DNA of 25,289 nt, taken from positions 1 to 25,289 of IMG/VR virus record IMGVR_UViG_2531839265_000001; one strand, 5' to 3'. The first letter of the stretch is position 1; each line of letters opens with the position of its first letter. The position numbers and the translations under genes were made by a program. The notes under the pieces were generated by a model. That model worked only from the letters and a program-made list of their open reading frames with translations, was not told the DNA's origin and made no database searches. Below, piece by piece: positions 13,038 to 24,940 of the stretch. The stretch is from a virus (Duplodnaviria; Heunggongvirae; Uroviricota; Caudoviricetes).

Positions 13038-13193
13038 TTACTTCTCAGATTCGTAGTCCACGAAGACAGCAACCTCCGTCTGGCCGGTTCGGATTCGTAC
13101 CTCGCAGAGGTCTTTCCTCGTTACCAGTGCCGTCACTATGACGGTTAAACAGATGACGATCAGGGCGATTAACATCGCCTTTTGCTGCTTCAT
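13038..13193 (-). CDS. hok: Hok/Gef-family type I toxin (51 aa)
   Basis: MKQQKAMLIALIVICLTVIVTALVTRKDLCEVRIRTGQTEVAVFVDYESEK has the Hok TM segment and CE.R motif. AGGAG RBS before the ATG at 13193. A 9-bp perfect hairpin at 13002-13023 follows the stop. Confidence 0.9.
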   Translation of the reverse strand: MKQQKAMLIALIVICLTVIVTALVTRKDLCEVRIRTGQTEVAVFVDYESEK

Positions 13194-13530
13194 AGCCTGC
13201 TTCTCCTTGCCTTTCGACACGTAAGAGGCTAACCTACATTTGTGAGACGTAGATTGGGCCTCAGATTAATGTTAAGCGTCCTGCAAGACGCGTAATGTTA
13301 ACTGGGGCTTTTCTCTGTTTGCCTTACAGTGGCATGCCCGAGGCAGACAGCCTCAAGCACCCGCAGCAATCTTACCGACACCGATAAGAAAACGCTATTT
13401 TTATTGCCAGCACCATCTATCCAGGCTAATTTATCTGCGTCAGAACGGCGCAATGCGCTCGCCTGAGATACGTTTACTTGCCATGGTAACAACAGATAAC
13501 GGCAATTGTTGTTTCTGTTTTGTTTCCTTC

Positions 13531-20582: not shown

Positions 20583-20765
20583 ATGGAAACGTTATTACCA
20601 AACGTTAATACGTCTGAAGGTTGTTTTGAAATTGGTGTCAGAATCAGTAACCCTGTATTTACTGAAGATGCCATTAATAAGAGAAAACACGAACGGGAGC
20701 TATTAAATCAAATATGCATTGTTTCAATGCTGGCCCGTTTACGCCTGATGCAAAAAGGACGCTGA
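20583..20765 (+). CDS. dicB: cell-division inhibitor DicB
   Basis: GAGGA RBS then METLLPNVNTSEGCFEIGVRISNPVFTEDAINKRKHERELLNQICIVSMLARLRLMQKGR, nearly identical to remembered E. coli DicB. Confidence 0.85.
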   Translation: METLLPNVNTSEGCFEIGVRISNPVFTEDAINKRKHERELLNQICIVSMLARLRLMQKGR

Positions 20766-20767
20766 CA

Positions 20768-20971
20768 ATGAATACAGCATTTGCTCTCGTTCTGACAGTT
20801 TTTCTTAATACAGGCGAGCCAGTCGATCTTGTTATTGGTATACATGACTCAATGAAAGAATGCATGGCTGCCGCAGCGGAACAGAAAATTCCTGGCAACT
20901 GTTATCCGGTTGATAAAGTTATTCGCATGGACAATAACGAAATCCCGGCAGGACTTAAAACAGCACCGTAA
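20768..20971 (+). CDS. ydfD: YdfD-like small secreted protein (DUF1482-like)
   Basis: MNTAFALVLTVFLNTGEPVDLVIGIHDSMKECMAAAAEQKIPGNCYPVDKVIRMDNNEIPAGL with an N-terminal hydrophobic segment. Confidence 0.65.
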   Translation: MNTAFALVLTVFLNTGEPVDLVIGIHDSMKECMAAAAEQKIPGNCYPVDKVIRMDNNEIPAGLKTAP

Positions 20972-21051: not shown

Positions 21052-23523
21052 ATGAGTAAAGTCTTTATTTGCGCCGCCATTCCGGACGAACAGGCAATAA
21101 AGGAAGAAGGGGCAGTCGCTGTAGCCACTGCCATTGAAGCCGGTGACGAACGTCGCGCCCGTGCCAAATTTACCTGGCAATTCCTGGAGCAATATCCGGC
21201 TGCTCAGGACTGCGCTTATAAATTTCTTGTCTGCGAGGATAAACCCGGCATGCCCCGCCCTGCCATCGACTCCTGGGATACCGAATATATGCTGGAAAAC
21301 CGCTGGGATGAGGAAGGCGCTTCCTTTGTCCCGGTCGAACCAGAATCCGATCCGATGAACGTCAATTTTGACAAGCTGTCCCTTGAAGTACAGAACGCGG
21401 TCCTGGTTAAGTTCGGTACATGTGAAAACATCACCGTTGATATGGTGATTAGTGCACAGGAATTGTTGCAGGAGGACATGGCAACATTCGACGGGCATAT
21501 CGTTGAGGCATTGATGAAAATGCCTGAAGTTAACGTCATGTATTCAGAACTAAAGCTGCTCGCCATCGGGTGGGTTAAACATAAATGTAAGCCGGGTGCA
21601 AAATGGCCTGAGATCCAGACAGAATTACGCACCTGGAAAAAACGTCGCGAAGCCGAACGCAAGGAAACCGGGAAATACACGTCTGTTGTTGATCTTGCCC
21701 GCGCCAGAGTCAACCGACAGCACACTGAAAACTCAGCAGGAAAAATCAACCCCGCCACTGCCGCCATTCGTCGCGAATACAAGCAGACATGGAAAACGCT
21801 GGATGAAGAACTGGCCTACGCTCTGTGGCCTGGCGATATTAATGCCGGAAACATTGACGGCAGCATCCATCGCTGGGCAAAAAATGAAGTTATCGACAAA
21901 GATCGCGAAGACTGGAAGCGCATTTCCGCATCAATGCGCAAACACCCCGATGCCGTTCGCTACGACCGTCAGACTATTTTTGGCCTTGTCCGTGAGCGTC
22001 CGATCGACATTCACAAAGATCCCGTGGCACTGAACAAATACATCACTGAATACCTGGCGACAAAGGGCGTGTTTGAAGATGAAGGAACAAATCAGAGCGC
22101 AACTGATACTCTCTCGTCGCCAGTACCAGAAACTGATGCAGTGGAAACGGCAATTCCGGACAACGAAAAAATCGAATGCAAAGTGGAAGTCGAACCATCT
22201 GTAGAGCGTGAGGGGCCGTTCTACTTCCTCTTCACAGATAAGGATGGCGAAAAATATGGTCGTGCAAACAAACTTTCTGGTCTGGATAAGGCGCTGGCTG
22301 CCGGGGCTACTGAAATCACGAAAGAAGAATATTTCGCCCGCAAAAACGGTACATACTCAGGTTCACAACAAAATACTGGTGCATCTGACACGACCGCACA
22401 ACCAGAGCCGGTAAAAGTTACCACTGACGAAGTAAACAAAATTATGCAGGCAGCCAATATCAGCCAGCCTGACGCCGATGTACTGCTTGCAGTATCACGT
22501 GGTGAATTTGTTGTAGGGGTTAGCGATCCGAATGATCCGAAATGGGTGAAGGGGATTAAAACCCGCGATTCTGTGAACCAGAACCAGCAAGAAACAGAAC
22601 AGAACGACCAGAAAGCGGAACAAAACAGCTCAAATGCGTTACAAAACGAGCCAGAAACGAAACAGCCTGAACCAGAAGAGCAACAAGAACCGGAAAAAGT
22701 CTGTACCACCTGCGGTCAGACCGGCAGCGGTAACTGCCCTGATTGCGGCACTGTGATGGGCGACGCAACATACCAGGAAACATTCGATGAAGAGAATCAG
22801 GTTGAAGTTCAGGAAAATGATCCGGAGGAAATGGAAGGCGCTGAACATCCACACAAGGAGAACCCTGGCGGCAATCAGCATCACGCCAGCGATAATAAAA
22901 CTGGCGAGGCGACAGATCCCTTAATTAAGGTGAATGGTCATCATAAGCTCACATCCACCAGCAGAGCGGGGATTCATCTGATGATCGACCTTGAAACCAT
23001 GGGAAAAAATCCCGATGCCCCGATTATCTCAATAGGCGCAATATTTTTCGATCCACAAACCGGAGATATGGGACCGGAATTTAGCAAGACCATCGATCTG
23101 GATACTGCTGGCGGAGTCATTGATCGTGACGTCATTAAATGGTGGCTGAAGCAATCACGTGAAGCGCAGTCTGCCATTATGACCGATGAAATCCCGTTAG
23201 ATGATGCACTACTGCAATTGCGGGAATTTATCGACGAAAACTCCGGTGAATTTTTTGTTCAGGTCTGGGGTAATGGGGCCAACTTCGACAACGTGGTTTT
23301 ACGCCGTTCATACGAACGACAGGGTATCCCCTGCCCGTGGCGCTACTGCAACGATCGCGATGTACGCACAATCGTTGAGCTGGGGAAAGCCATAGACTTC
23401 GATGCCAGAACGGCTATTCCATTCGAAGGTGAGCGCCATAATGCACTTGATGACGCTCGTTACCAGGCAAAATACGTTTCAGCTATCTGGCAAAAACTGA
23501 TCCCGAGTCAGGCTGATTTTTAA
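21052..23523 (+). CDS. large YdfE-like protein (823 aa) with C-terminal DexA-type DEDDh 3'-5' exonuclease domain
   Basis: GAGGTT RBS. C-terminal about 180 aa carry DEDDh motifs IDLETMG, WGNGANFD and HNALDDARY and resemble T4 DexA. Upstream are a CTTCGQTGSGNCPDCG zinc-ribbon-like motif and a Q/E/N-rich acidic linker. N-terminus MSKVFICAAIPDEQAIKEEG... matches the truncated YdfE of K-12 as I recall it. Confidence 0.7.
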   Translation: MSKVFICAAIPDEQAIKEEGAVAVATAIEAGDERRARAKFTWQFLEQYPAAQDCAYKFLVCEDKPGMPRPAIDSWDTEYMLENRWDEEGASFVPVEPESDPMNVNFDKLSLEVQNAVLVKFGTCENITVDMVISAQELLQEDMATFDGHIVEALMKMPEVNVMYSELKLLAIGWVKHKCKPGAKWPEIQTELRTWKKRREAERKETGKYTSVVDLARARVNRQHTENSAGKINPATAAIRREYKQTWKTLDEELAYALWPGDINAGNIDGSIHRWAKNEVIDKDREDWKRISASMRKHPDAVRYDRQTIFGLVRERPIDIHKDPVALNKYITEYLATKGVFEDEGTNQSATDTLSSPVPETDAVETAIPDNEKIECKVEVEPSVEREGPFYFLFTDKDGEKYGRANKLSGLDKALAAGATEITKEEYFARKNGTYSGSQQNTGASDTTAQPEPVKVTTDEVNKIMQAANISQPDADVLLAVSRGEFVVGVSDPNDPKWVKGIKTRDSVNQNQQETEQNDQKAEQNSSNALQNEPETKQPEPEEQQEPEKVCTTCGQTGSGNCPDCGTVMGDATYQETFDEENQVEVQENDPEEMEGAEHPHKENPGGNQHHASDNKTGEATDPLIKVNGHHKLTSTSRAGIHLMIDLETMGKNPDAPIISIGAIFFDPQTGDMGPEFSKTIDLDTAGGVIDRDVIKWWLKQSREAQSAIMTDEIPLDDALLQLREFIDENSGEFFVQVWGNGANFDNVVLRRSYERQGIPCPWRYCNDRDVRTIVELGKAIDFDARTAIPFEGERHNALDDARYQAKYVSAIWQKLIPSQADF

Positions 23524-23584
23524 TGTTCAACCGTCGCCAGTTGTCGTTGGTATTCTGCAACTGGCGCGTTCCGGAGTGATAGCC

Positions 23585-24940
23585 ATGAGCGAACAGTACC
23601 TGATAACGCTCGATGAGTGGAAGCCAAAACGGTTCAGTCTCCCAATAACAAACACTACCCTGGTGAAATACGGAAAACTAGGATACATCGTTCCAAGACC
23701 ACAAAAAATTCGTGGGCGTTGGCTGATAGATCGCCGAGCAGTATTTGTTGGACCTGGTGAAACAGGAATTGCGCCGGAAATTCATACTGGCGATGATGAT
23801 GCACTGAAGGAGATTTTAACTCATGTCACCGAGGCCACGAAAAACAGCACTGACGTAGCCGGACTTTACGAAAAATTTGATCGCAGAACTGGCAGAGTTT
23901 ACTACCAGTATAAAAACCCTGTGACTGGAAAATTTCACGGGCTCGGAACAGACAAAGGTAAGGCAGAAAAAATCGCTTCCACAGCCAATCAGCGAATAGC
24001 TGCAGCAGAGGCTGAATATTTCATGCGCAAAATTGATGAAAGTCCGTCAGCAACAAAGCGTCGGGGTATCAGATTAAAGGCATGGGTTGATCGATATCTG
24101 AAAATACAGGACACGCGACTGAAAAATGGAGATATTGCAGCTACAACTCACAAAGAAAAAGCCAGAATGGCTGCATACCTGGTTTCCCGTCTGGGAAACC
24201 ACCCATTGAAAGAACTGGAAGTAAGAGACTTTGCATTAATACTGGATGAGTGGCTGGATAAAGACATGGTCAGCACAGCGAGAGTAAATCGTGGATTATG
24301 GGTTGATATTTATAAAGAAGCACAGCATGCAGGGGAAGTTCCTCCTGGATGGAATCCTCCGGAGGCTACCCGTAAACCGATCCCTAAAGTAACTAGAGCC
24401 AGGCTCACCCTGGAAGACTGGCAAAAAATTTACAACGCAACGCCTGAAAAACACTTTATCCGTAACGCAATGCTTCTTGCGATTGTTACTGGTCAGCGCC
24501 GTGATGACATTTGCCACATGCGTTTTTCAGATGTGTGGAACGAACACTTGCATATCACCCAGGGAAAAACCGGAATGCGTCTGGCGTTACCGCTTACACT
24601 ACGCTGTGATGCCATTGGGATAACGTTAAAAGAAGTTATTGATGGGTGCCGAGACAGAATATTAAGTCCATATCTAATCCATAGTCGGCACCAGAAACAA
24701 CCAAAGCCGATGAGTAAAGACAACCTGAGCGACTACTTTGCCAAAGCACGGGATCTGGCTGGGATAACTCCACCAGCAGGAAAAACTCCGCCAACATTTC
24801 ATGAACAACGCTCCCTGTCAGAACGACTGTACCGCGCGCAGGGTATTGATACAAAAACATTACTGGGACATAAAGTCCAGGCAACCACCGATCGTTATAA
24901 CGATACTCGTGGTCAGGAATGGGTTAAATTGGTTGTTTGA
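23585..24940 (+). CDS. excisionase-like segment fused in frame to a lambda-family tyrosine integrase; the fusion is probably caused by a missing base in the A5 run at 23840-23844
   Basis: N-terminal about 85 aa (MSEQYLITLDEWKPKRFSLPITNTTLVKYGKLGYIVPRPQKIRGRWLIDRRAVFVG) are Xis-like. The rest aligns to lambda Int (YEKFDRRTGRVYYQYKNPVTGKFHGLG ... HEQRSLSERLY ... LGHK...DRY.DTRG.EW). An out-of-frame ATG at 23823 reads MSPRPRKTALT-stop; with one extra A it becomes MSPRPRKNSTDVAGLYEKFDRR..., a typical Arg-rich Int N-terminus overlapping the xis end. Confidence 0.75.
   Translation: MSEQYLITLDEWKPKRFSLPITNTTLVKYGKLGYIVPRPQKIRGRWLIDRRAVFVGPGETGIAPEIHTGDDDALKEILTHVTEATKNSTDVAGLYEKFDRRTGRVYYQYKNPVTGKFHGLGTDKGKAEKIASTANQRIAAAEAEYFMRKIDESPSATKRRGIRLKAWVDRYLKIQDTRLKNGDIAATTHKEKARMAAYLVSRLGNHPLKELEVRDFALILDEWLDKDMVSTARVNRGLWVDIYKEAQHAGEVPPGWNPPEATRKPIPKVTRARLTLEDWQKIYNATPEKHFIRNAMLLAIVTGQRRDDICHMRFSDVWNEHLHITQGKTGMRLALPLTLRCDAIGITLKEVIDGCRDRILSPYLIHSRHQKQPKPMSKDNLSDYFAKARDLAGITPPAGKTPPTFHEQRSLSERLYRAQGIDTKTLLGHKVQATTDRYNDTRGQEWVKLVV

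Follow-up and report, generated by a model that had tools for sequence, protein, structure and literature searches.

RecE, encoded by the Rac prophage of Escherichia coli K-12, carries a long N-terminal region ahead of its nuclease domain. The role of that region has not been established (review PMC11611040), and the same review cites Fu et al. (2012) for the use of full-length RecE in linear-linear recombineering because the N-terminal region improves the reaction. In lambdoid phages, DnaQ-type 3'-5' nucleases have been reported in Rec modules and sporadically near int, together with "RecE-2" proteins devoid of a nuclease domain and a class of phages that has no Rec module and is rich in Chi sites (Zheng et al. 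2025, PMC12315714). In this study, we examined a stretch of 25,289 nucleotides (nt) of a Caudoviricetes virus (IMG/VR record IMGVR_UViG_2531839265_000001, positions 1 to 25,289; hereafter the window) and, within it, a full-length ydfE-type gene that combines features of these systems. The encoded protein is a paralogue of RecE whose nuclease cassette has been exchanged for a DexA-type DEDDh exonuclease domain: the resemblance to RecE breaks off precisely at the start of the nuclease domains. As an exonuclease gene it is an ordinary, already annotated member of a heavily populated family. Three points go beyond that annotation: the RecE-like character of the whole N-terminus, the nuclease swap at a sharp junction, and the occurrence of the same scaffold with a Rad52-fold annealase.

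A RecE-type scaffold joined to a DEDDh nuclease domain

The gene and its parts, given in amino acids (aa) of the product and with the AlphaFold2 predicted local distance difference test (pLDDT) where available, are the following.

21052..23523, plus strand: complete gene for the RecE-type scaffold and DEDDh exonuclease (full-length YdfE-type protein), ATG start, 823 aa
21052..21735, plus strand: head, aa 1-228, an alpha/beta domain (aa 1-100) and then a helical domain (aa 105-228); pLDDT mostly >90
21784..22071, plus strand: middle helical domain, aa 245-340, common to RecE (RecE ~294-353); pLDDT >90, BLASTP to RecE, NCBIfam PRK09709
22213..22347, plus strand: small beta-hairpin and helix domain, aa 388-432, with disordered linkers on both sides; pLDDT ~95
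22476..22925, plus strand: block shared with K-12 recE in DNA (blastn), ~aa 475-625, containing SDPxDxKW, a Q/E/N-rich tract, the zinc ribbon and an acidic linker
22702..22746, plus strand: four-cysteine zinc-ribbon-like motif, C551-x2-C554-x7-C562-x2-C565, recognised in the sequence
22975..23490, plus strand: DEDDh 3'-5' exonuclease domain (Rv2179c/DexA family), aa 642-813; Pfam PF16473

The phrog_2082 family, "exonuclease", matches the protein from end to end (1-823 of 823, E 0). The initial annotation had treated the first ~550 residues as a region of unknown function and had named a known RecE-like module as the finding that would speak against it; a RecE-like module is what the searches return. 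The NCBIfam model of exodeoxyribonuclease VIII, PRK09709, matches aa 219-625 (E 8.8e-77; profile positions 243-602 of 877), the score of 259 bits falling short of the equivalog cut-off of 1269, and BLASTP aligns aa 279-625 with residues 294-591 of K-12 RecE (E 2e-58). Identity to RecE is ~38% in the middle and ~80% from about aa 470, zinc ribbon and acidic linker included; in DNA, nt 1425-1874 of the gene match nt 1365-1772 of recE at 75.6% identity (blastn, E 5e-98). This similarity stops at aa 625 (RecE 591), just before the RecE nuclease domain (DUF3799, aa 615-850). The head is more distant. Pfam Exonuc_VIII, the model of the RecE head, gives no direct match on aa 1-228, and the relationship emerges when alignments of 89 YdfE-type and 12 RecE-type heads are compared with hhalign (aa 13-197, probability 96.1%, E 2.9e-9, 178 columns). 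By these alignments, the N-terminal 625 aa are homologous to the N-terminal region of RecE over their full length, the head only remotely so. The description of this part as a region of unknown function thus holds for function, since the corresponding region of RecE is unexplained too (PMC11611040), and fails for relationship.

Where RecE continues into a PD-(D/E)XK domain, the protein examined here continues into a DEDDh domain of RNase-H-like fold; the expected polarity is therefore opposite to that of RecE. DUF3799 is absent from the protein in a Pfam search, and no lambda Exo or YqaJ-type PD-(D/E)XK domain was matched in Pfam, NCBIfam or the PDB. Instead, the Rv2179c-like family (PF16473) matches aa 642-813 over profile positions 2-177 of 177 (E 8.2e-66; 221.5 bits, the cut-off being 27). 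Among solved structures, sequence searching finds T4 DexA alone (8kel/8ken, E 3.2e-5), a member of the same Pfam family with ~32% identity to the domain, so that the earlier assignment of the C-terminus to the DexA type, as opposed to the lambda-Exo or PD-(D/E)XK type, is borne out. The catalytic residues D646, E648, D746, H796 and D801 are all present, align with D7, E9, D119, H186 and D191 of DexA, and are invariant in an alignment of six sequences (DexA, four relatives and this protein). DexA differs in being a standalone protein of 227 aa with several insertions that the domain examined here does not have.

PF16473 also bears on what the enzyme may act upon, given that the best Pfam family is named "3'-5' exoribonuclease Rv2179c-like". 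The protein might resemble Rv2179c or NrnC and act as an exonuclease on RNA or oligonucleotides, trimming RNA 3' ends or breaking down short oligonucleotides; it could then process operon transcripts or small RNAs, or destroy the nucleotide signals of host defence as a form of counter-defence; in K-12, where dicF lies between ydfC and dicB, the equivalent operon does yield a processed small RNA, DicF. The Mycobacterium tuberculosis Rv2179c and NrnC-type nanoRNases, for which the family is named, are of cellular origin, act on RNA or oligoribonucleotides and have no scaffold. The single solved relative found by sequence is a DNA exonuclease, DexA, and Rv2179c itself was not recovered in a direct sequence search of solved structures at E values up to 1. 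Furthermore, the scaffold is common to relatives that are double-stranded DNA exonucleases or single-stranded DNA annealases, which points to DNA, and no DicF match reaches the Rfam gathering score anywhere in the window, though dicB is present. We consider an RNA substrate improbable and a DNA substrate the better reading of the domain.

Within the scaffold, AlphaFold2 was run on aa 1-470 with an alignment of 41 sequences (mean pLDDT 83.5) and predicts disorder at aa 345-383 and 438-455. The folded element between these linkers, aa 388-432, is extra with respect to K-12 RecE: it has no counterpart there and falls in a gap of the BLASTP alignment. Foldseek against viral models gave no informative match for the scaffold domains at E <=0.001, and a profile search of PDB sequences with the scaffold gave none. 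Close homologues (P0001-P0120) carry precomputed assignments to two more recent Pfam families, PF27430 and PF27432, in their N-terminal part. Further along, the cysteine motif CTTCGQTGSGNCPDCG and the acidic, Q/E/N-rich linker lie where the initial annotation had put them. The cysteines are C551, C554, C562 and C565; the tract before them (aa 505-552) is 21% Q, 21% E and 12% N, and the acidic linker after them (aa 570-634) is 17% E. The motif may bind zinc: its two CxxC pairs are closely spaced and recur in the same pattern in K-12 RecE and in eight representative clusters, while the Pfam DZR match lies below cut-off (13.1 bits vs 27.3, E 0.11).

That the reading frame is real is confirmed by the selection acting on it. 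The ratio of nonsynonymous to synonymous substitution (dN/dS) was calculated pairwise against two orthologues, those of phage mEp460 and E. coli AJ1. The overall values of 0.20 and 0.23, together with 0.04-0.19 in the folded domains, indicate purifying selection and no chance open reading frame. The DEDDh domain gives 0.12-0.17, the predicted disordered linkers 0.5-0.9, and the lowest values in the protein (0.04-0.06) belong to the small domain at aa 388-432. The gene has matches in 4797 of 5426 complete E. coli genomes (median, two sites each), of which 3531 have a match spanning 80% or more of its length; the closest copy among these genomes is 95.3% identical in DNA, and the annotation reads "exonuclease" or "3'-5' exonuclease". 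The viable, plaque-forming phage mEp460 carries a copy 90.6% identical. Most E. coli genomes thus have the gene, a single strain often carrying it in more than one prophage, and viable lambdoid phages have it as well. Our literature search found no functional study of ydfE, nor any of Rv2179c-like proteins in phages.

This distribution also speaks to the view that the gene is a decaying or functionless prophage remnant. The K-12 copy is indeed truncated, as had been noted: ydfE is annotated as a pseudogene abutting the IS2 element IS2E, and the 256 codons at its beginning show 87% identity to aa 1-256. Partial entries are also numerous in the database, and the neighbouring xis/int is frameshifted in the window. 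Nonetheless, the open reading frame is intact, it evolves under the constraint just described, all the catalytic residues are kept, and near-full-length copies occur in the complete genomes and in mEp460. A remnant is therefore very improbable indeed.

Heads and tails in the wider family

An initial search for homologues gave little beyond partial E. coli entries that were nearly identical, and the diversity of the family came from representative clusters: of 1.84 billion, no more than 242 were matched in an exhaustive HMMER search using aa 1-640. We examined 51 long sequences, this protein and 50 long representative relatives, assigning heads and tails by seed mapping. Pfam recognises an Exonuc_VIII head in 20 of them, DUF3799 in 11, the Rv2179c-like domain in 7 and RecT in 1. 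Every combination of head and tail was found.

YdfE head and DEDDh tail: this protein, P0121, P0122
RecE head and DEDDh tail: P0128, P0142, P0255, phage 689R5
RecE head and PD-(D/E)XK tail: RecE itself, P0254, P0257
YdfE head and PD-(D/E)XK tail: P0193, P0130, P0186, P0230

In P0128, the opening 444 aa share 94-100% identity with K-12 RecE, and the tail is nonetheless of the DEDDh type. Another 16 relatives cluster by C-terminal tails of ~270 aa with motifs reminiscent of Rad52; in the models, these tails are predicted to be a Rad52-fold annealing domain borne on the same scaffold. Such fusions (phrog_2489), exemplified by gp07 of Pectobacterium phage ZF40, which is annotated as "putative exonuclease", share with our protein a homologous YdfE/RecE-type head and middle and an operon position between repressor and int; they differ in ending in the annealing domain and not in a nuclease. 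A nuclease partner beside the ZF40 protein was sought and rejected, the downstream gene being Sipho_Gp157 and not a DEDDh nuclease. The Rad52 fusions possibly include "RecE-2" proteins of Zheng et al. (2025). Three other relatives, P0125, P0136 and P0263, end in a conserved tail of ~45 aa (…LTIAA[IL]xG[LM]CANPA…) without a recognisable enzyme domain, and may be the nuclease-less "RecE-2" proteins (PMC12315714).

One motif persists throughout these exchanges. SDPxDxKW, here GVSDPNDPKW at aa ~490-498 (22519-22545), is kept in 22 representative clusters regardless of whether the tail is DEDDh, PD-(D/E)XK or Rad52, and may be where the scaffold binds a partner. The zinc-ribbon motif, on the other hand, is optional, since it was found in 8 of the 22 clusters with SDPxDxKW.

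A separate observation concerns P0219 (703 aa), an in-frame RecE-RecT fusion in which RecE, from residue 1 to ~520, passes into RecT in the middle of the zinc-ribbon motif. It looks like the product of a deletion that joined recE and recT.

Operon context and a possible role at DNA ends

The gene lies in the early-left operon of a Qin/CP-933-like lambdoid prophage, repressed by a DicA-type repressor and of the form ydfA-ydfB-dicB-ydfD-exo. In the window, the order is a helix-turn-helix repressor, ydfA (DUF1391), dicB, ydfD (DUF1482), the exonuclease gene and then xis/int. K-12 Qin, phage mEp460, E. coli AJ1 and phage 689R5 share this arrangement, and no annealase gene lies close by in any of the four. 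The immediate neighbours are as follows.

20583-20765, plus strand: dicB (Pfam DicB, E 1.3e-36)
within 20714-20971, plus strand: ydfD-like DUF1482 gene (Pfam DUF1482, E 1.2e-22)
23576..24940, plus strand: xis and int, joined in one frame of 454 aa (Pfam Exc, weak; Arm-DNA-bind_1; Phage_integrase)

RecE has the same place, in an early-left operon adjoining xis/int, with the difference that recT adjoins recE and no recT follows the gene here. The earlier claim that the gene occupies the recE position is upheld by another contig, L009, in which a RecE-head::DEDDh hybrid sits exactly in the place of recE in a Rac-like operon (sieB-kilR-ydaE-gene-xis-int) from which recT is missing. The nuclease domain also occurs unfused. 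Phage mEpX2 encodes a standalone DEDDh homologue (gp032; 58% identity to aa 642-816) inside a canonical Rec module of Rad52-family annealase, single-stranded DNA-binding protein (SSB), exonuclease and Abc2. Like our gene, this and the other standalone DnaQ-type nucleases (e.g. that of epsilon34 in Zheng et al. 2025) lie in lambdoid early-left operons; unlike it, they are ~180 aa long and flanked by Rad52-family annealase, SSB and Abc2, whereas the protein examined here carries its nuclease on a RecE scaffold of 625 aa and has no annealase as a neighbour.

We give about an even chance to the proposal that the protein is a DNA exonuclease that processes 3' ends in phage recombination or replication, a reading drawn from domain and neighbourhood comparisons. 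The strongest argument is the fusion taken with its surroundings: in relatives the scaffold is fused to a Rad52 annealase or to a recombination exonuclease, and the nuclease domain occurs elsewhere in Rec modules. The gene would be expressed on prophage induction or infection, because it is the last gene of an early-left operon under a DicA-type repressor. The scaffold would direct the enzyme to whatever site or partner it serves in RecE, probably DNA ends, where the metal-dependent DEDDh domain would take nucleotides off 3' ends, for example single-stranded 3' tails or flaps. Such trimming could shape recombination-dependent replication or repair of the phage, probably in concert with host RecBCD/RecA, a reliance suggested by the lack of an annealase in the phage itself.

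Several points weigh against this proposal. No annealase gene adjoins the fused DEDDh gene in any of the five contexts examined (here, mEp460, AJ1, 689R5 and L009); any recombination role must therefore depend on proteins of the host. The usual effect of 3'-5' exonucleases on homologous recombination is inhibitory (PMC12315714). The Pfam family takes its name from an exoribonuclease, and RNA or short oligonucleotides could be the substrate.

The classical role of T4 DexA offers another reading, in which host DNA fragments are scavenged and converted to mononucleotides during lytic growth. The homology to DexA, whose record is annotated with host DNA degradation, and the early expression expected of the gene agree with it. 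Scavenging would, however, make the large and conserved RecE-type scaffold unnecessary, and relatives bear annealase tails instead. Lambdoid phages are not known to degrade the host chromosome. We regard this role as quite improbable.

Alternatively, the protein could serve phage exclusion, selectively degrading the hydroxymethylcytosine-containing DNA of superinfecting T-even phages and so protecting the lysogen in the manner of EcD ("HREX"). The same operon encodes DicB, which has been reported to protect against some phages. EcD is a plasmid-borne E. coli homologue of DexA that degrades T4 DNA and protects against T4 (Kang et al. 2025, PMC12153337). Identity of our protein with EcD was considered and rejected, EcD being a different, standalone protein whose primer-encoded termini, MIDTET... 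and ...TIPETY, differ from those of our protein and are absent from the window. As to single residues, DexA D90, whose loss is needed to avoid tetramers (PMC12153337), is kept here as D718 (HMMER and MAFFT); DexA W152, the proposed hydroxymethylcytosine reader, aligns with C766, relatives having W or Y there; and DexA D169 falls in an indel region where the alignment is ambiguous. Moreover, the operon position implies that the gene should be repressed in the lysogen, and PADLOC gives only a generic CRISPR-associated DEDDh match (E 1e-4). Exclusion therefore seems unlikely to us, and we return to 3'-end processing in recombination or replication as the preferred role.

The Chi content of the window is relevant to that role. 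Nine Chi octamers (GCTGGTGG) occur in positions 1-25289, against ~1.0 expected from shuffles, seven of the nine on the minus strand and one inside the exonuclease gene.

4538, 4888, 9087, 10617, 11258, 13593, 15234, 22955, 24770: Chi sites

Nine sites are consistent with the Rec-less, Chi-rich class of lambdoid phages (PMC12315714), and the gene bears on how phages without a Rec module sustain recombination-dependent growth. More tentatively, and with greater doubt than attaches to 3'-end processing itself, we suggest that the N-terminal region of RecE is a portable targeting scaffold that brings interchangeable DNA-end effectors (a 5'-3' PD-(D/E)XK nuclease, a 3'-5' DEDDh nuclease, a Rad52-fold annealase or nothing) to one site or host partner. 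The DEDDh version in Chi-rich, annealase-less phages might then be a strategy for tuning host RecBCD/RecA at phage DNA ends, not for replacing it. A scaffold naturally joined to nucleases of presumably opposite polarity and to Rad52-type annealases gives a direct handle on its role, and the swap, the sharp junction and the Rad52-tailed relatives together make the function of the RecE N-terminal region approachable by experiment. The family could also yield new recombineering parts.

Other features of the window

Relative to E. coli VG48B2 (99.8% identity), the window lacks one A of an A6 run where xis and int overlap, near 23839; as a result, Xis is fused to Int and the start codon of int itself is out of frame. 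Two origins are possible for this one-base deletion: a genuine mutation that inactivates or fuses the genes, or a sequencing error in the homopolymer. Elsewhere, the late-regulatory region of the prophage contains the sok antitoxin RNA of a hok/sok module (13188-13362, minus strand) and a cluster of three transfer RNA genes, Gly-TCC, Thr-TGT and Met-CAT (5610-5919, minus strand).

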